A stretch of DNA of 64,000 nucleotides from a virus (IMGVR_UViG_3300014208_000024:288001-352000); one strand, 5' to 3'. Counted from the stretch's first letter, positions 3,216 through 19,973 are shown. The notes: a model not told the origin generated them from the letters alone. Translations and numbers: made by a program.

Positions 3216-4277
3216 ATGAACACTGAAAATGTAAAATTAGATTTTCATGATTTGAGAATTAAACCTGAGAAAACTAGTAGTATAACATCCAGAAGTCAAA
3301 TAGACCCATACTACCATGTGAATAAAAAAGAGTTTTTGCCAATTTTTACAGCCCCTATGGACACTGTAATTAATAATGAAAATGCAAAATTGTTTGAAAA
3401 AAACAAAATTCACACAATTATTCCTAGAGGAGAAAATCCTCCTAGGTGGGGAAGTCAATTTCGATTTAAATCAGTTGGATTAGATGAATTCATTTATCAA
3501 TATATAAATACTGACGAAAATGAAAATCATTTTCAATCTGCATTTACAATATATATTCTTATTGACATTGCAAATGGACATATGGAAAAACTTATTGAGG
3601 CCACTTCAAATGCAAAAAAAATATATGGAGAAAAAATGGTTTTAATGGTTGGAAATGTTGCAAACCCAGAGACATATAAAATATTTGCAGAAGCTGGAAT
3701 AGATATGGTTAGAGTTGGAATAGGAAACGGAAACGCATGTTTAACAACTAAGCAGACTACAATTGGATATCCAATGGCATCATTAATTAAAGAGTGTTGC
3801 GAAATAAAAAAACAAAACGGATATTCAACAAAAATTATAGCAGATGGTGGAATGAAAGATTTTTCAGATGTAATTCTTGCACTTGCACTTGGTGCAGACT
3901 ATGTAATGATCGGATCTCTTTTTAACAAATCTCTTGAATCTTGTGGGGACACCTATTTGTTTGACAAAATAAAAATAAACCAATATTCTAATTTTGCAAA
4001 ATGGCTTTTCAAAAAGAAGTTTAAACTTACAAAAAAATTCAGAGGAATGTCAACCAAAGACGTGCAAAAAAAATGGAATAAAGAAAAAATTAAAACATCT
4101 GAGGGAATTTCAAAAAAACAAAAAGTTGAATATACAATAAGTCAATGGGTAGAAAATTTTGAAGACTATTTAAGATCAACAATGAGTTATTCAAATGCAA
4201 AAAATCTGAATGAATTTATTGGAGAAGTTGAAACTATACAAATTAGCGATAAAGCATACGAAAGATTTAACAAATAA
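3216..4277 (+). CDS. guaC: GMP reductase / IMPDH-family protein
   Basis: APMDTV, IDIANGH, RVGIGNGNACLT catalytic-Cys loop, IADGG, LALGADYVMIG, FRGMS, SEG; no CBS domains. Confidence 0.8.
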   Translation: MNTENVKLDFHDLRIKPEKTSSITSRSQIDPYYHVNKKEFLPIFTAPMDTVINNENAKLFEKNKIHTIIPRGENPPRWGSQFRFKSVGLDEFIYQYINTDENENHFQSAFTIYILIDIANGHMEKLIEATSNAKKIYGEKMVLMVGNVANPETYKIFAEAGIDMVRVGIGNGNACLTTKQTTIGYPMASLIKECCEIKKQNGYSTKIIADGGMKDFSDVILALALGADYVMIGSLFNKSLESCGDTYLFDKIKINQYSNFAKWLFKKKFKLTKKFRGMSTKDVQKKWNKEKIKTSEGISKKQKVEYTISQWVENFEDYLRSTMSYSNAKNLNEFIGEVETIQISDKAYERFNK

Positions 4278-4281
4278 TAAT

Positions 4282-4722
4282 ATGAAAAAAAACAATCCAA
4301 ATGTATTCCTCGGAGGAACATGCAATGATTCCACCTGGAGAGAAAGATTAATTAAAGACCTTAAAGTACCTTACTTTAATCCAGTTGTTAAGGATTGGAA
4401 CGAGGAAGCTCAAAAAAAAGAAATAGAAGAAAGAAAAACAGCAAAGTTTGTTCTTTATGTAATAACACCCCTTATGACTGGAGTTTATTCAATAGCAGAA
4501 GTAATAGATGATTCAAACAAAAGACCAGAAACTACACTGTTTTGTGTTTTAGAAAAAGATAATGATAAAGAATTTGAAAAATTTCAAATAAAATCTCTTA
4601 ATCAAGTTAAGGAAATGGTCAAAAAAAACGGATCAATGGTTTTTGAAAATTTATCAGAAATAGCAAAATTCTTAAACAACCAGGAAGATAAAGATAAAAT
4701 GAAAAAACTTGCTGGTGTATAA
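4282..4722 (+). CDS. Nucleoside 2-deoxyribosyltransferase-like protein
   Basis: VFLGGTCN.STWR...YFNPVVKDW, YSIAEV; start moved to ATG 4282 just after the guaC stop. Confidence 0.75.
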   Translation: MKKNNPNVFLGGTCNDSTWRERLIKDLKVPYFNPVVKDWNEEAQKKEIEERKTAKFVLYVITPLMTGVYSIAEVIDDSNKRPETTLFCVLEKDNDKEFEKFQIKSLNQVKEMVKKNGSMVFENLSEIAKFLNNQEDKDKMKKLAGV

Positions 4723-6014: not shown

Positions 6015-6527
6015 ATGACAATAAAAGAAATTAAAAAGAAAATTGATGAAAGTTCTGTAAACTTATTTAAAAAATCAGACTTATATCAACTATTTGGAAT
6101 AAAAGAAAAAACAAAAGTTTCAATTCCATCTAATATTGACGAACCGTTTAATAATATAAAACCAAAAATTAACCCCGAACTAATCGTAAGTTATAATGGC
6201 CACTCAATAGTTATTAATTCTCGCTTACTTGATTCAAAAAACGCCTGGGGAAACATTGAAAACATTAAAACACTTCATCTTGAGAAACTTAAGGTTTTTG
6301 AAAAAATGGAAAAAACCAACAACAAAAAAGAATTGAAAAAATACGCTGAAAAAATTGAACAAATTGAATTTTCTCTTCAAACAGAGTGGGGATTTCCTTT
6401 AAACAAAAACTTTCATACGTGGTATAATGTTCCAAAATGTACTTGCCCCAAAATGGATAATGAAGACAATAGAGGTACAGATTATAGAATTATTTCAGAA
6501 GACTGTCCAGTACACGGAAAAGAATAA
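6015..6527 (+). CDS. Hypothetical phage protein with C-terminal CxCPxxDN...CPxHG Zn motif
   Basis: ORF behind a TATATTTG host-type promoter at 5994-6001. Confidence 0.65.
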   Translation: MTIKEIKKKIDESSVNLFKKSDLYQLFGIKEKTKVSIPSNIDEPFNNIKPKINPELIVSYNGHSIVINSRLLDSKNAWGNIENIKTLHLEKLKVFEKMEKTNNKKELKKYAEKIEQIEFSLQTEWGFPLNKNFHTWYNVPKCTCPKMDNEDNRGTDYRIISEDCPVHGKE

Positions 6528-8040: not shown

Positions 8041-8862
8041 ATGGAAACAAAAAATCTATCAGAATGGTGTAAGTGGCTTGAGAAAAACTTTTCTCCAGAA
8101 ATAATGATTCCCACACTGCCAGTTATTATCAGGCTAGACGGCAATAACTTTCACAACTGGACCAAGGGATTAAATCGTCCATTTGATGAGGGTTTAACAA
8201 ATTTAATGATCGACACAACCAAGTTTTTAGTAAAAGAAACTGGCGCTGTTATTGGATACACACAATCAGATGAAATAACTCTTGTTTTATATTCTTCTGA
8301 TAGAAAAACTCCAATCTATAATGATGGAAAAAAACAAAAAATATTGTCAAAACTTACAGTTAAGTGTGTAAATTATTTTAACACAAGCAGACAAAACTTT
8401 CTCCCAAATCACAATAAAATTGCAGTATTTGATTGCAGAATATATCAAACTCCAACACTGCACGATGCGGCAGTACAGTTATTGTGGAGAGAAAATGATG
8501 CAACAAAAAATAGTATATCATCCCTAGCTCAAAGTTTGTTTTCTCACGATTCTCTACAAAATCTTGACGGAAATCAAATGCAAGATAAAATGATGTTGGA
8601 AAAAAACGTTAATTGGAATGATTTGCAAACAAAATTCAAAAGAGGAACCTATGTTAAAAGAACAAGAACCTCTAAACCGTTTACTGTTCAAGAATTAGAA
8701 TCTCTTCCTAAAAATCACAACGCACGTAAAAATCCAAACCTGGTCATTGAAAGAAATGTTATTTCAGTAATTGAATTACCAATTTTTAACAAAATTACAA
8801 ACAAGGCTGGAGTTGTATTCTTTGATGAAAATCCAATATTAGGTGAAGAAGTTAATTCGTAA
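8041..8862 (+). CDS. thg1: tRNA(His) guanylyltransferase Thg1-like 3'-5' polymerase
   Basis: IRLDGNNFH, GYTQSDEITL, FDCR, WRENDATKNS, KRGTY motifs. Confidence 0.9.
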   Translation: METKNLSEWCKWLEKNFSPEIMIPTLPVIIRLDGNNFHNWTKGLNRPFDEGLTNLMIDTTKFLVKETGAVIGYTQSDEITLVLYSSDRKTPIYNDGKKQKILSKLTVKCVNYFNTSRQNFLPNHNKIAVFDCRIYQTPTLHDAAVQLLWRENDATKNSISSLAQSLFSHDSLQNLDGNQMQDKMMLEKNVNWNDLQTKFKRGTYVKRTRTSKPFTVQELESLPKNHNARKNPNLVIERNVISVIELPIFNKITNKAGVVFFDENPILGEEVNS

Positions 8863-8867
8863 ATCAC

Positions 8868-9965
8868 ATGAAAACTATTTTAGTGGCTATTTCTGGAGGA
8901 ATTTCTGCATACAAAGCTGCAGATGTAATTAGTGGACTTAAACACAATGGATTTGAAGTTCATGTAATTACAACAAAAAACGCATTGGACTTTGTAACCC
9001 CCACTGTTCTCGGAGTAGTATCTGGAGGACACTATGTTACAGATGATAATGTAAATAAAATTGCTCATATTGAAGAAGCTCAAAATTGTGATGCATTCAT
9101 TTGTGTTCCAGCAACAGCAAATATTATTGCGAAATTCGCAATGGGAATTGCTGATGATTTTGTTTCGTCTACTTTTATTGCAATTCCTAATAAAATTCCA
9201 AAAATTATTTGTCCAGCAATGAACACAATAATGTATGAAAACCCCGCTTGTTCTCAAAACCTTAATGTTCTTGAATCTAGAGGATGCTATATTATTGAAC
9301 CTGTTTATGGAGAATTGGCTTGCGGTGTTGTCGGAATAGGAAAACTTCCAAAACCAAGAGATATCGTTAATAAAACAATAGATTTTCTCGATACAAGAAA
9401 GCCATGGCATTGGCCAATTTCTCAAATACCCCAAGGAGTTACTGAAGATTCAAATTCTTTTCTCAGAATAAATATCGAAAGAGAAGTTGAAATACCTGTA
9501 AAATATCATTTCGGAGCTTTTGGTGCAATGAGAAGGTTTGATAGACACAGAGGAGTTGATTTATATGCTCCAGTTGGTACTAAAGTTTCTGCTGTACAAA
9601 AGGGAATTGTAAAAGATATTCGCCCCTGGACAGGAATAAATGCAAATTGTGACTGGTGGAACGATACAGATGCAATTTCTATTGAGGGAGAAGATGGATT
9701 AGTTGTCTATGGAGAAATTAAAGTAAATCCAAAACTTAAAATTGGAAACGAAGTAATGGCTGGAGATTTAATTGGGGAAGTCTTACAAGTTCTTAAAAAA
9801 GACAAAGGTAGACCAACAAGTATGCTTCATTTAGAATTAAGAAAACCTGGATTTTATAAAAACATTGACAAAACATGGAACCAAGATTTGCCAGATGGAT
9901 TACTTGATCCCACTCCATTTTTAATAAGATCAATGAAAAATTATCATCATTTTATAAAAATATAA
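8868..9965 (+). CDS. coaC: Phosphopantothenoylcysteine decarboxylase (CoaC) fused to an M23 peptidase domain
   Basis: N-term GGISAYKA, PATANIIAK, PAMN..MY, LACG..GIG; C-term HRGVDLYAP...HLELR. Confidence 0.85.
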   Translation: MKTILVAISGGISAYKAADVISGLKHNGFEVHVITTKNALDFVTPTVLGVVSGGHYVTDDNVNKIAHIEEAQNCDAFICVPATANIIAKFAMGIADDFVSSTFIAIPNKIPKIICPAMNTIMYENPACSQNLNVLESRGCYIIEPVYGELACGVVGIGKLPKPRDIVNKTIDFLDTRKPWHWPISQIPQGVTEDSNSFLRINIEREVEIPVKYHFGAFGAMRRFDRHRGVDLYAPVGTKVSAVQKGIVKDIRPWTGINANCDWWNDTDAISIEGEDGLVVYGEIKVNPKLKIGNEVMAGDLIGEVLQVLKKDKGRPTSMLHLELRKPGFYKNIDKTWNQDLPDGLLDPTPFLIRSMKNYHHFIKI

Positions 9966-9968
9966 TTT

Positions 9969-10250
9969 ATGGAACTAATCTATGACGGTTCAAAAATAAC
10001 AGAAGAACATAAGAAAAAAAGAGGTTTATTTTTTTTGGAAGAACTTTTTGTTGGAAATTTTAACTCAATCAGAGCCCCACTTTCTTTGCGAAAAAAAATG
10101 GATTCTGATGTATTTGAAAACATTGAATTAGATATGAAATGTTTTTTTGGAGTAAAAGATGAGTCAAAAATTGTGTTTAAAAATTATACACACTTTAGAA
10201 AAATTTTAAAAAGATCTGGAATTAGTTTAAAACAATATTTTAAAGAATAA
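9969..10250 (+). CDS. Hypothetical protein
   Basis: ORF tightly packed in the operon. Confidence 0.6.
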   Translation: MELIYDGSKITEEHKKKRGLFFLEELFVGNFNSIRAPLSLRKKMDSDVFENIELDMKCFFGVKDESKIVFKNYTHFRKILKRSGISLKQYFKE

Positions 10251-10255
10251 AAATT

Positions 10256-10921
10256 ATGAAAGTTTTAATCACAGCAGGTGGAACCCGTGAGCACATTGAT
10301 GAAGTTAGAGTTTTAACAAACATTAGTACTGGTAAACTTGGTGCTCAAATTGCAGACACATTTTCTTATAACAAAGACCTGGATAAGATATATTACATAT
10401 GCAGTAAAGGGTCACAAATTCCAGAGCGTCCAATTTATGATGTTCCAATAGAAATTATATATGCAGATAGTGTTCAGCAAGTTTACGAAACAATGGAAAA
10501 GCTTGTTCCAAAATGTGATGTCGTAATTCACTCCATGGCAATAAGTGACTTTGGATTTAAAACATCAAATATTAAACTAAAAAGTAATGATCCACAGGCT
10601 TTCATAGATTCCCTTAGAGAGCGTATAGTAGTTAATCCGAAGATTATATCGTTCATAAAGAAATGGAACCCTAAAACGAAGCTTGTTGGCTTTAAATTCG
10701 AAGTTGATAAAACACATGATGAATTGATTGAAATTGCGTTTGAATCTTTGTTAAGAAACGAATGTGATTTTGTTGTTGCAAACGACAAAAAAGAAATGAA
10801 AGATAAGAAAGATCACATAGCTTATATTATTGACAAAAACAAAAATGTCATTGAATGCTCTGGAAAACTTGATATATCACTAAAATTAGTAACCAAAGTA
10901 TTAAAAAAAATAAATCTATAA
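10256..10921 (+). CDS. coaB: Phosphopantothenate-cysteine ligase (CoaB)
   Basis: VLITAGGTRE.ID.VR.LTN.STGKLG, HSMAISDF, LVGFKFE, VVAND. Confidence 0.9.
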   Translation: MKVLITAGGTREHIDEVRVLTNISTGKLGAQIADTFSYNKDLDKIYYICSKGSQIPERPIYDVPIEIIYADSVQQVYETMEKLVPKCDVVIHSMAISDFGFKTSNIKLKSNDPQAFIDSLRERIVVNPKIISFIKKWNPKTKLVGFKFEVDKTHDELIEIAFESLLRNECDFVVANDKKEMKDKKDHIAYIIDKNKNVIECSGKLDISLKLVTKVLKKINL

Positions 10922-11787: not shown

Positions 11788-12657
11788 ATGTTTAAAGTTT
11801 TAGGAAAAAAAATTCACGATTTTTTATTTGGAACAAAAGATAAAGAAAAAATTGAAACTCCTACCCCGATTTTTTCTGCCAGTACAAACTTGTATAATAT
11901 ATTCCAAACAAAAGAAACTCAACAAACAGAAGAATTAGAATTTCCACAAGATGATCCAGAGTTTATTAAAAAGTGTAGAGCCGACGACGAAAATTGGGGA
12001 ATTATTAATCAAGTAAATACAGAAAAATTTGAAAGAAAATTGAATTTTAACGATCCTCTTTTGATAAAAGTTGTAAATATCGAAGAAAATCAAGATTCAA
12101 AAATATTCATTTCTCCAAAACAACTTTGTCAACATTTTAATTTAAAACCAAAACAGTTTTATGCTTGGGAAAAATCAGAAAACAAATTATATAACAAAAA
12201 ATATAAATTGGAGATCATAAGTTTTCCAATAGATAAAGAAAAATATTCTATTGAAAAAATAAATTACACAAAAATTTCTGACGAAGAGGGAAAATTAGAT
12301 ATCCATATAATTCCAAAAAAAGGAGTTCAATTTATTCAAACAGATTTTAAAGTTACACCAAGCGGAACATTCTTTGATTCTGGAACTCGTCTTGCAATAA
12401 GAATAAAAAACTTACGGAAAAGAAAATTTATAAGTGTTGCTGAGAAATGTCCAGAACTTATTAAAGAGTGGGATGAACTAAATAACGGAGTTTCAATAGA
12501 TAAAGTTCCTCATGCCTTAAAAGAAAAAGCATTTTGGATTTGTCAACACTGTGGTGCACGATACGAAAGACGTATTGATGATAGAACAAGAAATCCAAAA
12601 CCAGGTTGTACAAAATGTATAAGAAGAAAAAATAATAATAAAAATTATGAAATTTAA
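11788..12657 (+). CDS. Hypothetical protein with C-terminal zinc-ribbon (DUF4379-like) domain
   Basis: PELIKEWD..NN...K.FWIC..CG..Y...R......GC..C; TATATTTG promoter at 11760-11767. Confidence 0.7.
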   Translation: MFKVLGKKIHDFLFGTKDKEKIETPTPIFSASTNLYNIFQTKETQQTEELEFPQDDPEFIKKCRADDENWGIINQVNTEKFERKLNFNDPLLIKVVNIEENQDSKIFISPKQLCQHFNLKPKQFYAWEKSENKLYNKKYKLEIISFPIDKEKYSIEKINYTKISDEEGKLDIHIIPKKGVQFIQTDFKVTPSGTFFDSGTRLAIRIKNLRKRKFISVAEKCPELIKEWDELNNGVSIDKVPHALKEKAFWICQHCGARYERRIDDRTRNPKPGCTKCIRRKNNNKNYEI

Positions 12658-13444
12658 AGACGAACTCAGGCAAATTAAAAATATCAAAAAAGCTTATGTC
12701 CAATTATGGAAAGGCGATTTTGCAAACGAAGCAACTTATATTGCTTTTATGGGATGTGAATTTCTTAAGATTCCGACACAAAGATTTCACATAGAGGACA
12801 TGGGTACATTAGAAATTGACAAAGATACTGTGGTTTTTGGAGGAGTTACAGCTGTAAGAACTGGATTGTCAATGATTGGAGCAGAACTTCCAAAACCTCT
12901 TGATATTCCAGAAGAACTTTATCCATATACAAAAAGAAATATAAGATTGGGAACTATAAAATCTTTTATGGAAGAAAAAAATTTCCCACTTTTTGTTAAG
13001 CCAAGACTACCAAAATTGTTTACTGGAGCAGTTGTTTGTAGTGCTGAAGAATTAGAATTGTTCAAATATCTTCATACAGATGATTTGGACATGGAAATTA
13101 TGGCCTCTGATGTTGTTAAATTCGTTTCTGAATATAGAACATTTGTTTTGGAAGGACACCCTTATGATTGTAGAAAATATAGCGGAAATCACAGAATAAC
13201 ACCAGATTTCAATTTTATTGAAGAAACTATAAAAGCATATAAAACTGCGCCAGTGGCTTATGGTATTGACTTTGGAGTAACAGACAAAGGGGAAACTATG
13301 TTAATAGAAGCTAATGATGGTTACTCCCTGGGAACTTATGGCTTTGATTGCTATAATTATGTTAGAATGTGCATACTTCGCTGGAATCAAATTCTAAATA
13401 ATGAACAGTTTTTTAAAGAAGGTGATAAAATAGAAATTATGTAA
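12647..13444 (+). CDS. ATP-grasp domain protein (DUF4343/R2K-like)
   Basis: FVKP..PKLFTG, VSEYRTFV, IDFGV, LIEANDGYSLG. Confidence 0.8.
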   Translation: MKFKDELRQIKNIKKAYVQLWKGDFANEATYIAFMGCEFLKIPTQRFHIEDMGTLEIDKDTVVFGGVTAVRTGLSMIGAELPKPLDIPEELYPYTKRNIRLGTIKSFMEEKNFPLFVKPRLPKLFTGAVVCSAEELELFKYLHTDDLDMEIMASDVVKFVSEYRTFVLEGHPYDCRKYSGNHRITPDFNFIEETIKAYKTAPVAYGIDFGVTDKGETMLIEANDGYSLGTYGFDCYNYVRMCILRWNQILNNEQFFKEGDKIEIM

Positions 13445-13839: not shown

Positions 13840-14313
13840 ATGAAAAAGATTATTCTTTTTTTAATTTCAACGTTTATTTTCAACTTTTGTTTTCCTCAAA
13901 ATTATATTGGAAAATGTTCCACTGAAATAATTGTGCAAGAAACGTGGTTGTTGAGCAAAGACTCTACTGAATCATGGGAAAAAAAGAATTTAAAAATAGA
14001 TGTTACAAGACTAAGGAAAGAGGGAAAAATGACAATTCACGATCCTGACAATTTTAAAGTAATTACATGCTATTTTCAAAAAGATACGTGCAATTCATTT
14101 ATGATTGTTTATTATAATCTTAATAGACCATATGTGGAGAAAATGTTAAAGAAAAAATATAACTATAACGGACAGGATTCTTGGATATGTTGTTCAGAAA
14201 ATAAACACATAGAATTATGTTTTATGGAAAATCCAGGAGAAATATTCGTTGTAGAAGTTTGTCATTATTTATCGTCAAATCAAATAATAAAAGAAGGAAA
14301 ATCAAAATTATAA
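13840..14313 (+). CDS. Hypothetical exported protein
   Basis: MKKIILFLISTFIFNFC signal-peptide-like N-terminus. Confidence 0.6.
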   Translation: MKKIILFLISTFIFNFCFPQNYIGKCSTEIIVQETWLLSKDSTESWEKKNLKIDVTRLRKEGKMTIHDPDNFKVITCYFQKDTCNSFMIVYYNLNRPYVEKMLKKKYNYNGQDSWICCSENKHIELCFMENPGEIFVVEVCHYLSSNQIIKEGKSKL

Positions 14314-14317
14314 AATT

Positions 14318-15511
14318 ATGCAATCACAACACATTAAACTAAATGAAATCATTTGGGAAATTACTGGAGAATGTCATAACGGATGTTCATATTGTGGATC
14401 AAAAGAAGTTTGTAAATTAAAAACAAGCCCAGAAACTATTTTAAAAATTGCTGAAGCAATTGCTCAATATCCACCAGAGCAAATTGACATAAGTGGCGGA
14501 GATCCAATTCTTATTGAATATTCAGTCCACAAACAGGTTGTCGATATTTTAAAGGAAAAAAAAGTGATTTGCAAAATTATTGTAAGTCCCAACTCTTTAA
14601 TTATTAATAATGAACCAAATGATAATGCATTCATGGTTATGCAATTTTATGATTGGATTGGAATATCTGTAAACAACAAAAAAGAACTCGAAAAATTTCA
14701 ATCATATCAATTATCTTGCGCTGGAATAAATAAGATAAAAAATTATACAGTTATTACAAACTTTAACATTCAAAACCTTTATGACTTTGATTTAATTGAA
14801 GAATTTGTAAAACAAAATGATAAAATATGGACAATACAATTCACTGTATACAACGATCCATCCAATCCATTGGCATTATATCACCCAGACAACGAAGCTG
14901 CTTTCAACACCTTGAAAGAAAAAGTGGAAAAAAGTACAGCGAAAATCATTCTTTCTGATAACATAAGAAACGACATTGGATGTGGAGCTGGAATTAATTC
15001 AATTGGAATCACTTCTGATGGAACAGTTATTCCTTGTCTATCAATGAGAAGCTGGACAAGCCCACTAAAAGAAAAAGGATTGTTTAATATTCTTTCAACG
15101 CCATTAGAAAAAATTTGGATAAATGGATTTAAAGCACAAAGATTTGGATGTTTTAAATGCTGCAAAGATGCATGCAATAACAAATTTTTGACACAGAAAA
15201 GTGATTTTGAAAAAAAGATGTTTGAGCTAGCTACTCCAACAATAGAGAACAAAGAAATGGATTGGAAAAAATTTCTTGAAGATCTTCAAAAACAAACACC
15301 ACCACAGCCACCATTTAGTCCAATGGAACAAACTGTTATGTACGCAGTACAATTTCCCAGACAACAACAAACTCTAATGTATGCAGTTCCATGCGGAAGA
15401 GGAAACGTATATGCTTATGCGGTTTTTATGGATAGAACTGTTTATGATAACTCTATTCCATTAGATTCTTCGACAAATATATCTTCAACCACCGAACCAG
15501 AAATAAAATGA
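14318..15511 (+). CDS. Radical SAM/SPASM-like protein with C-terminal xYAV repeats
   Basis: WEIT..CHNGCSYC (CxxxCxxC), ISGGDP, CGAG...GITSDG.V.PCLS, tail MYAV/MYAV/AYAV. Confidence 0.85.
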   Translation: MQSQHIKLNEIIWEITGECHNGCSYCGSKEVCKLKTSPETILKIAEAIAQYPPEQIDISGGDPILIEYSVHKQVVDILKEKKVICKIIVSPNSLIINNEPNDNAFMVMQFYDWIGISVNNKKELEKFQSYQLSCAGINKIKNYTVITNFNIQNLYDFDLIEEFVKQNDKIWTIQFTVYNDPSNPLALYHPDNEAAFNTLKEKVEKSTAKIILSDNIRNDIGCGAGINSIGITSDGTVIPCLSMRSWTSPLKEKGLFNILSTPLEKIWINGFKAQRFGCFKCCKDACNNKFLTQKSDFEKKMFELATPTIENKEMDWKKFLEDLQKQTPPQPPFSPMEQTVMYAVQFPRQQQTLMYAVPCGRGNVYAYAVFMDRTVYDNSIPLDSSTNISSTTEPEIK

Positions 15512-19415: not shown

Positions 19416-19973
19416 ATGGAAATTCTTATTGTAGATATAGAAACCACTGGATATCTTGTAAAAACTGATGCTATCATAGAAATCGGTTTAGTACTCGTAA
19501 ATACAGACACCAATGAAATAAAACCTCTGTTTAACCAAGTTGTTAAAGACGATTTATTTAACATAAACAAACATAAAAACGCCTGGATATTTCAAAATTC
19601 AGATTTGACTCCAGAGGAAGTCCAAAACGCAAAACTTCTCAAAGAACATTATGAAGAAATACAAAGCCTATTCGATAAATATCCAGTGACAGCATTTAAC
19701 AAATCATTTGATGTTAGATTTTTAGAAACAAAAGCATTTAAACTAAATCATATTAAATGTCTTATGATGGCCTGTGTGGACTATGTTTACCTTAAAGATA
19801 AAAGAGGAAATAAAAAAAGACCATCCGTACAAGAAGCTTATGATCACTTTTTTCCAGATGAAAAATACATAGAAAAACATAGAGGGGCTGACGATGCCCT
19901 TCATGAGGCAAAAATTCTTCTTAAAATGTGCGAAATTAAATCTCAAAGAAAAAATAACAAAGATGAAAAATAA
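19416..19973 (+). CDS. DEDDh 3'-5' exonuclease (DnaQ-like)
   Basis: VDIETTG, AFN.SFD..FL, HRGADDA. Confidence 0.85.
   Translation: MEILIVDIETTGYLVKTDAIIEIGLVLVNTDTNEIKPLFNQVVKDDLFNINKHKNAWIFQNSDLTPEEVQNAKLLKEHYEEIQSLFDKYPVTAFNKSFDVRFLETKAFKLNHIKCLMMACVDYVYLKDKRGNKKRPSVQEAYDHFFPDEKYIEKHRGADDALHEAKILLKMCEIKSQRKNNKDEK

Follow-up and report, generated by a model that had tools for sequence, protein, structure and literature searches.

Does a phage radical S-adenosylmethionine (SAM) enzyme carry its own substrate? The question is raised by gene P0001, which lies in a 64,000-nucleotide stretch (IMGVR_UViG_3300014208_000024:288001-352000, hereafter the window) of a 372,283-bp viral genome, and whose product joins a radical SAM enzyme to a C-terminal tail with repeated tyrosine sites. 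A sequence-only reading of the window had described a radical SAM core, a short SPASM-like part, a Q/P-rich linker and a disordered tail with three Tyr-Ala-Val sites, and had proposed a splicease-like enzyme fused to its own core-like repeats. Judging from the pattern of these sites in the phage family and next to cellular relatives of the enzyme, we consider that the tail is probably the substrate of the enzyme that bears it. The chemistry is a separate matter: by analogy, tyramine excision of the splicease type is tentatively favoured, and any biological role of a modified tail is speculative.

Enzyme and tyrosine sites on one polypeptide

The tail was defined as the sequence after the conserved CCKDxC motif, and it could be cut in 111 homologues. 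The repeats exceed chance: these tails hold 344 Y[GA] pairs, whereas 500 shuffles that kept their composition gave 64 +/- 7 and at most 90, and the density per 100 aa is 3.0 in the tails and 0.13 in the enzyme bodies. The site logo has V/T/I at -3, V/M/L/A at -1, Tyr in 100% of cases, G (54%) or A (46%) at +1 and V (79%) at +2; it is Pro-rich on either side, with flanks conserved over ~9 residues. The pattern [VTI]x[VMLAI]Y[GA]V has 211 matches in the family tails and none when Phe, Trp or His is put in the place of Tyr. Linker sequence and site number (0-7 per tail) vary freely, sites are mostly spaced 10-13 residues apart, the first site follows the last Cys motif by a median of 43.5 residues, and the C-terminus lies a median of 32 residues beyond the last site. 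In P0001, the Q/P-rich linker and the three Tyr-Ala-Val sites (Y342, Y355, Y367) are as first described. The sequence-only reading had singled out Ala in place of Gly after the Tyr; this is true of every P0001 site, but it is not a peculiarity of this protein, given the near-even family-wide split, the mixing of Y-G and Y-A within a single tail in 67 of 110 proteins, and the 13 tails, that of P0001 among them, that have Y-A only.

Enzyme and Tyr sites are fused on one polypeptide in essentially all full-length members, which bears out the proposal of a virus-encoded enzyme with core-like Tyr repeats in cis. At least one site is present in 81 of the 83 further representatives where the Cys motif could be located, and the most distant IMG/VR copy (29% identity, locus L103) keeps four. 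The opposite pattern, homologues devoid of repeats, is decisively contradicted because nearly all homologues keep xY(G/A)V. No naturally split pair of enzyme and YG-peptide genes was found in the phage family. P0001 is also the only open reading frame (ORF) in its genome with at least two [VMLIAY]Y[GA]V motifs (background 0.006 per 100 aa), and a motif scan of the ORFs of the 372-kb genome gave no other motif-bearing protein that could serve as a substrate in trans. Across 23 loci there is no conserved neighbour gene, and the radical SAM gene thus travels alone. With the motif unique in the genome and no neighbour conserved, there is no sign of a precursor, helper or protease on another gene.

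The body of the protein is that of a radical SAM superfamily member, with the cluster motif, the SAM-binding motif and a partial TIM-barrel fold. The CxxxCxxC motif noticed at the outset (C19/C23/C26, contained in IIWEITGECHNGCSYCGS) is invariant in 115 aligned homologues; in the SAM-binding motif G60-G61-D62-P63, the two Gly never vary in the same alignment and D62-P63 hardly do. The Pfam model PF04055 covers residues 14-118 with 27.0 bits, slightly below its cut-off of 29.5, and most homologues have a precomputed match to it. The SPASM-like part is also real, with PF13186 matching residues 222-283 (including CGAGINSIGITSDGTVIPCLS) at 27.5 bits against a cut-off of 21.5. It is abridged: a canonical SPASM domain has seven Cys for two auxiliary clusters, whereas the phage family keeps five (222, 240, 281, 282 and 286), the last three compressed into CC-x3-C. 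The linker after the SPASM part reads QKQTPPQPPFSPMEQ, and the protein ends in TTEPEIK. The first beta-strand of the barrel begins at residue 10, and neither the sequence nor the AlphaFold2 model has a RiPP recognition element (RRE)/PqqD-like domain or any other N-terminal peptide-recognition domain.

The AlphaFold2 model of P0001, built with 115 homologues, has a mean predicted local distance difference test (pLDDT) score of 84. Residues 1-300 form the partial-barrel body, mostly above 90, and the tail was rightly called disordered, because pLDDT is below 50 over residues 333-397. Among solved structures, the best Foldseek matches are CteB, PqqE (second) and SuiB, all at probability 1.00; these are peptide-modifying SPASM enzymes, and we count them for the tail as substrate. 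Viperin, anSME (also at probability 1.00), SkfB and MoaA come just below. A sequence profile search of solved structures was uninformative, returning only lysine 2,3-aminomutase (E 6e-5) over the cluster-binding stretch.

Cellular enzymes paired with Y-G proteins

P0001 belongs to no curated family, as all NCBIfam matches score 12-26 bits against cut-offs of 180-855, and PHROGs gave no meaningful family for it. The likeness suggested earlier to TIGR03913, a family of GDL motif peptide-associated radical SAM/SPASM maturases, did not survive the search with that model, which scores 19.6 bits (cut-off 591.75) over residues 10-91 only, that is, the N-terminal ~80 residues. TIGR04103 (nif11-class peptide radical SAM maturase 3) scores 25.9 bits on P0001 against a cut-off of 725, and is a weak match in 108 of the 115 members (best E 6.7e-10). 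TIGR04133 ('rSAM_w_lipo') scores 24 bits against 425, matches 115 of 115 members and has the best E-value of the NCBIfam models (1.3e-16). TIGR04103 is presumably the PlpX family, although no paper was found that equates it with IPR026482. PlpX itself is IPR026482 (PMC11002830).

TIGR04133 enzymes are present above the cut-off in 61 of 151 Fibrobacteres genomes. At 20 of the 35 loci read (L049, L058-L061 and 15 Fibrobacter-type loci in the range L020-L036), the neighbour is a secreted protein or lipoprotein with clustered YG sites, for example PLYGVYCPP, AKYGAPTP and PEYGVITPWYGV. The logo of these partner sites has V at -3, P/A at -2 and L at -1, followed by Y-G-V/A/I-P-P; there are 58 YG and 15 YA sites, and the +2 position is more variable. 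The L049 partner passes the TIGR04134 cut-off and has a type IX secretion system (T9SS) sorting domain. In a second group, which we call KYG-associated, radical SAM/SPASM enzymes of 486-495 aa are encoded directly downstream of LKYGYPCG-repeat proteins. Two of these proteins, at L038:2602-3540 (-) and L039:2604-3806 (-), have 14 and 21 tandem copies of (L/M)KYGYPCG and look like multi-site protein precursors of the spliceotide type. The best models for the enzymes of this group are TIGR04103 (229-232 bits) and TIGR03913 (201-212 bits), both below cut-off. By comparison, none of 20 loci of heme-pathway and other SPASM enzymes in the same genomes (the scanned members being AhbD/NirJ2 and AhbC/NirJ1) had a YG-rich neighbour within the flanks read.

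When the phage family was compared with these groups by hhalign, the KYG-associated group scored 158.7 (E 8.5e-22), TIGR04133 117.4 (E 5.4e-16), and the AhbD/NirJ2 and AhbC/NirJ1 heme-pathway groups 66-68 (E ~1e-8). The nearest profiles, among the few groups compared, which did not include an authenticated PlpX or RhaX sequence, are thus two cellular enzyme groups paired with separate xYG-repeat proteins. E14, G27, S28, N90, W171, A224 and R244, among others, are conserved in the phage family and both YG-associated groups and are not conserved in the heme enzymes. The sequence-only reading had compared the WE.T...C...C..CGS start and a C.AG segment with the TIGR03913 family; the resemblance holds in part, as these signatures are common to the YG-associated groups and are not seen in AhbD/NirJ-type enzymes, and it does not extend to membership of TIGR03913. 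In the maximum-likelihood tree the phage family forms its own long-branch clade, inside no cellular group. The phylogeny proposed as a check therefore gives no nesting, and it is the profiles that place the family nearest to the YG-paired groups. Because the phage branch is long, the cellular sister group is not resolved by the tree, and profile scores were used for this reason; because the cut-offs failed and the clade is separate, 'closest' here means closest among the groups compared.

Readings of the tail

The YG sites lie on separate genes in bacteria and on the same chain in phages, a Rosetta-stone relation that supports the tail as substrate. This reading fits best because the gene-fusion pattern is joined by a Tyr that never varies, a motif confined to this protein, and the absence of both a partner gene and a recognition domain. 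P0001, a radical SAM enzyme whose SPASM domain is abridged, would then stand alone and act on its own C-terminal tail or on that of a sister molecule. SAM bound at the C19/C23/C26 [4Fe-4S] cluster would give a 5'-deoxyadenosyl radical, and each P-x-x-(V/T/I)-x-(V/M/L)-Y-(G/A)-V site would be modified in turn by a chemistry requiring Tyr. The missing N-terminal recognition domain would be expected for a tethered substrate. If the step is of the splicease type, a tyramine equivalent would be excised at each site. The flexible arm of the resulting phage protein would then bear as many as three electrophilic ketoamides, and the protein could plausibly serve as a reactive effector, for instance by trapping proteases. 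The linker helix at residues 316-326, conserved in close homologues of P0001, is a possible natural counterpart of the activating helix of engineered spliceases discussed below. In the AlphaFold2 model of the short member P0073, pLDDT is 46-49 in the linker and 66-68 over the last 12 residues, which contain MMYGVRF; this rise toward the C-terminus is at most a hint of a defined position for the tail.

Tyramine splicing is a SAM-dependent loss of C8H9NO (135.06 Da) per site that leaves an alpha-ketoamide. The known splicease and spliceotide systems (PlpX/PlpY/PlpA, PcpX, RhaX, RcsX, RasX) resemble the phage family in having radical SAM/SPASM enzymes, a hydrophobic-Tyr-small target and several sites, and the WE.T...CxxxCxxCGS signature is common to the phage family and TIGR04103/TIGR03913-like enzymes. 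They differ in that the phage enzyme and its sites are on one polypeptide, with no leader, Y protein or separate precursor; 46% of the phage sites, and all of those in P0001, have Ala, the +2 Val is conserved, and the phage family is viral whereas spliceases are cellular. Spliceases target X-Y-G, with Met or Leu as the native X, and their products are protease inhibitors (PMC9811515, PMC11626197). They also process tags embedded in whole proteins, and an activating helix fused to the C-terminus of the splicease makes it more efficient and leader-independent (PMC11414181). The TIGR04133/TIGR04134 'radical SAM with lipoprotein' pair offers another likeness, in that its V-P-L-Y-G-V/A/I-P-P partner sites resemble the phage logo. 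However, that pair keeps its sites, Y-G with few Y-A, on a second protein that is secreted or a lipoprotein, whereas the phage enzyme is sub-cut-off, forms a separate clade and has no adjacent TIGR04134 gene.

The overall design has a precedent in the borosins (OphMA-like N-methyltransferases), in which a C-terminal core fused to the enzyme is modified iteratively, on the same chain or on that of the dimer partner. Like the phage protein, borosins place the modifying enzyme at the N-terminus and join it through a linker to a core at the C-terminus, with no leader peptide. Their fold and chemistry (SAM methyl transfer) are unrelated, and they are fungal or bacterial, with a single core peptide rather than spaced repeats. 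Our full-text literature search on spliceases, spliceotides, phage radical SAM and RiPP systems and the family accessions found no viral or fused form. According to the summary in PMC10849128, Scott et al. 2022 surveyed YG-associated radical SAM/SPASM enzymes in 189 genera, and that survey may already cover TIGR04133-type or fused forms.

Several observations weigh against a spliced, cis-acting tail. Ala occupies nearly half of the sites, yet all characterised splice sites have Gly, and no evidence was found that spliceases tolerate Ala after Tyr. Spliceases are not known to need the strongly conserved +2 Val, which would suit an i/i+2 cross-link. The phage family is far below every curated cut-off and forms a separate long-branch clade, and with no more than five conserved auxiliary Cys its SPASM domain is not canonical. 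The AlphaFold2 models do not place the tail: pLDDT is below 50 in P0001 and, for P0073, no higher than 66-68 across the final 12 residues. Finally, a substrate in cis allows only 1-7 turnovers per enzyme, which is unusual.

The main rival chemistry, unlikely but credible in our judgement, keeps the tail as substrate and replaces splicing by a triceptide-like cyclophane between a Tyr ring carbon and the C-beta of Val(i+2). We include here other Tyr-centred changes, such as a different cross-link, epimerisation or hydroxylation, any of which could give a stiffened, protease-resistant arm. The motif fits aromatic-X-X, with an invariant Tyr, a small +1 residue (G/A) and Val at +2 in 79% of cases, and the G/A mixing in 67 of 110 tails suits a spectator X2 better than the Gly of X-Y-G. 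The radical SAM/SPASM enzymes YxdB and YhhB join Tyr C3 to the C-beta of residue i+2 in precursors with tandem repeats, and triceptide enzymes in general (XncB, YxdB, YhhB, HaaB) act on repeated aromatic-X-X motifs with many modifications per precursor (PMC11002830). These enzymes need separate, leader-bearing precursors, however, and the phage protein has no leader. Nor is there a triceptide maturase model among the 25 most-matched NCBIfam families, where no HMM or profile relation to the phage family was detected. The nearest profiles are instead those of the Y-G-paired groups, whose partners have a variable +2 and a fixed Y-G (58 YG versus 15 YA), and the hydrophobic -1 residue (V/M/L) agrees with the native X of spliceases. 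A Tyr-Val cyclophane thus explains the Val and the G/A mixing better, and does so without support from enzyme similarity.

A different role for the tail, which we regard as quite unlikely, is that of a docking arm with short linear motifs for a host or phage partner, for the protein itself or for a compartment, the enzyme acting elsewhere on a small molecule, a nucleic acid or another protein. This would suit the unplaced tail of the AlphaFold2 models and the metabolic neighbour genes of this phage (NAD, CoA, nucleotide). Viperin and MoaA are only slightly worse structure matches than the peptide-modifying enzymes, and their models are among the weak NCBIfam matches. In addition, at least four homologues end in DDLPF, which is like the tip of bacterial single-stranded DNA-binding protein (SSB), so that at least some tails may carry docking motifs. 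Docking motifs, however, rarely bar every change from Tyr to Phe, as the count of 211 against 0 would require, and a phage-specific docking function leaves unexplained why the Y-G motif recurs on separate proteins beside the nearest cellular enzymes. There is also no other motif-bearing protein in the genome, and the enzyme is without a substrate-recognition domain.

PQQ and mycofactocin derive from Tyr-containing peptides. It is nevertheless highly improbable that the tail is a sacrificial feedstock whose remnant is discarded, supplying either a small molecule from Tyr (tyramine or a 4-hydroxyphenyl-acetaldehyde equivalent) or, in the manner of PqqA/PQQ and MftA/mycofactocin, a cofactor: PqqE is the second-best structural match and several sites per chain would lift the yield, but no accessory processing genes are conserved nearby, the stoichiometric yield would be tiny, and conservation of the flanks over ~9 residues exceeds what a feedstock needs. 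Pyruvate formate-lyase has the motif RVxG-Y-A-V. A glycyl-radical-enzyme-like motif was rejected for the tail, as no Gly precedes the Tyr in the phage sites and the corresponding activases are without SPASM.

Returning to the tail as substrate, the phage family would be a new, phage-specific form of the YG-motif radical SAM/SPASM systems, with the substrate fused to the enzyme. If the tail is indeed modified by its own enzyme, this would be the simplest peptide-modifying radical SAM system so far, with one gene, no leader and no helper, and an attractive portable tag for protein modification. Backbone beta-amino-acid/ketoamide chemistry, or Tyr cross-linking, would then reach viral proteins, beyond bacterial natural products, and the phage family, the TIGR04133/04134 lipoprotein pair and the KYGYPCG-repeat proteins would come under one rule, namely that this radical SAM/SPASM clade goes with Y-G sites. 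A bolder proposal is a leaderless autocatalytic system of one gene, present in hundreds of uncultured large phages, that splices itself at both Y-G and Y-A, leaving several alpha-ketoamide warheads to trap host proteases covalently during infection, for example those of quality control or defence. We consider this full combination unlikely. If it were true, it would be the first viral spliceotide and the first case of a radical SAM enzyme joined to the core that it modifies, and would provide a natural minimal splice tag that accepts Ala; it also raises the question of how a phage would benefit from a self-armed reactive protein.

Gene layout, family spread and genomic setting

Positions of P0001 features in the window, with the evidence for each
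Feature	Coordinates	Strand	Evidence
Whole gene P0001, radical SAM/SPASM enzyme with fused repeat tail, 397 aa, stop included; sole long frame at the locus	14318..15511	+	ORF list, translation
Radical SAM core, residues ~10-212	14345..14953	+	Pfam PF04055, AlphaFold2, Foldseek
CxxxCxxC cluster motif C19/C23/C26, then G27-S28	14372..14395	+	Invariant in 115 aligned homologues
Abridged SPASM/twitch-like auxiliary-cluster domain, residues 222-286	14981..15175	+	PF13186, Cys conservation in alignment
Linker, residues 287-338, with Q/P-rich stretch	15176..15331	+	AlphaFold2 pLDDT 70-80
Short amphipathic linker helix, residues 316-326	15263-15295	+	AlphaFold2 prediction
Site 1, T-V-M-Y342-A-V	15332..15349	+	Sequence; Y342 column near-invariant in alignment
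Site 2, T-L-M-Y355-A-V	15371..15388	+	Sequence; 13 residues after site 1
Site 3, V-Y365-A-Y367-A-V, double Tyr-Ala overlapping	15407..15424	+	Sequence
C-terminal Ser/Thr/acidic end, residues 370-397, sequence not conserved	15425..15508	+	Translation; pLDDT <50

The phage radical SAM family is essentially viral. A word-indexed search returned 224 homologues (E<=1e-3; 270-450 aa), all metagenomic, and an exhaustive profile search of 1.84 billion representatives gave 254 clusters at 50% identity (E<=1e-30). The gene is present at 17 loci in IMG/VR, 11 of them on contigs of 80-290 kb, and further homologues are on contigs of 100-370 kb. There was no match among GenBank phages (tblastn, 50,697 records), and a scan of 185,579 cellular species genomes found three loci only. 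One copy, 44% identical, lies on a contig assigned to a Paceibacterota metagenome-assembled genome (MAG) and falls within the phage clade of the tree; another is a fragment of 1.9 kb from an archaeal MAG; and the third, a Fibrobacteres enzyme with 20% identity, is unrelated. Two of the three are probably binned phage DNA.

Two truncated members were considered and rejected as exceptions to the fusion. P0095 is not a natural split: an element of the IS605 type (TnpB/Cas12f-like plus Y1 transposase, L005:3886-5605) sits in the 3' part of the radical SAM homologue, and the YG tail resumes downstream, beyond the insertion, at 6124-6519. P0021 is not a tail-less form: its TAA codon at L006:3808-3810 of a groundwater assembly, which cuts the enzyme upstream of the CCKD motif, is GAA in a sister viral contig (L088:3808-3810), and is a nonsense variant or assembly error, not recoding. 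Among other variants, P0129 (575 aa) has a 175-residue N-terminal extension ahead of the radical SAM core, and P0008, P0024, P0026, P0028 and P0122 have the C-terminus (E/D)DDLPF, an ending similar to the C-terminal tip through which bacterial SSB binds its partners.

The window, which comes from groundwater metagenomes, is phage DNA: it encodes homing endonucleases and an endolysin-like domain and has auxiliary metabolic genes. Directly upstream of P0001, a 157-aa ORF (13840-14313, +) has an N-terminal signal/lipoprotein-like segment and eight further Cys; it lacks YG/YA sites, belongs to no Pfam family, and has no counterpart next to the radical SAM gene of other family members. R2K-clade ATP-grasp enzymes are predicted peptide/protein ligases, and one is encoded two genes upstream (12647-13444, +; PF18299, 135 bits; phrog_7313), a gene not conserved beside the radical SAM gene at other loci. 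About 4 kb upstream (8868-10921, +) is a CoaC-like flavoprotein fused to an M23 peptidase domain, together with a separate CoaB/DFP gene. On the 291-kb contig that carries P0004, the same pair precedes this radical SAM homologue (L001:1999-4056), an arrangement that is synteny of related phages and no general linkage to the radical SAM gene. The auxiliary genes at 3216-4722, 8041-8862 and 19416-19973, with several GIY-YIG/HNH homing endonucleases interspersed, encode IMPDH/GMP-reductase-like, nucleoside 2-deoxyribosyltransferase-like, Thg1-like tRNA-His guanylyltransferase and RNase T-like exonuclease proteins.

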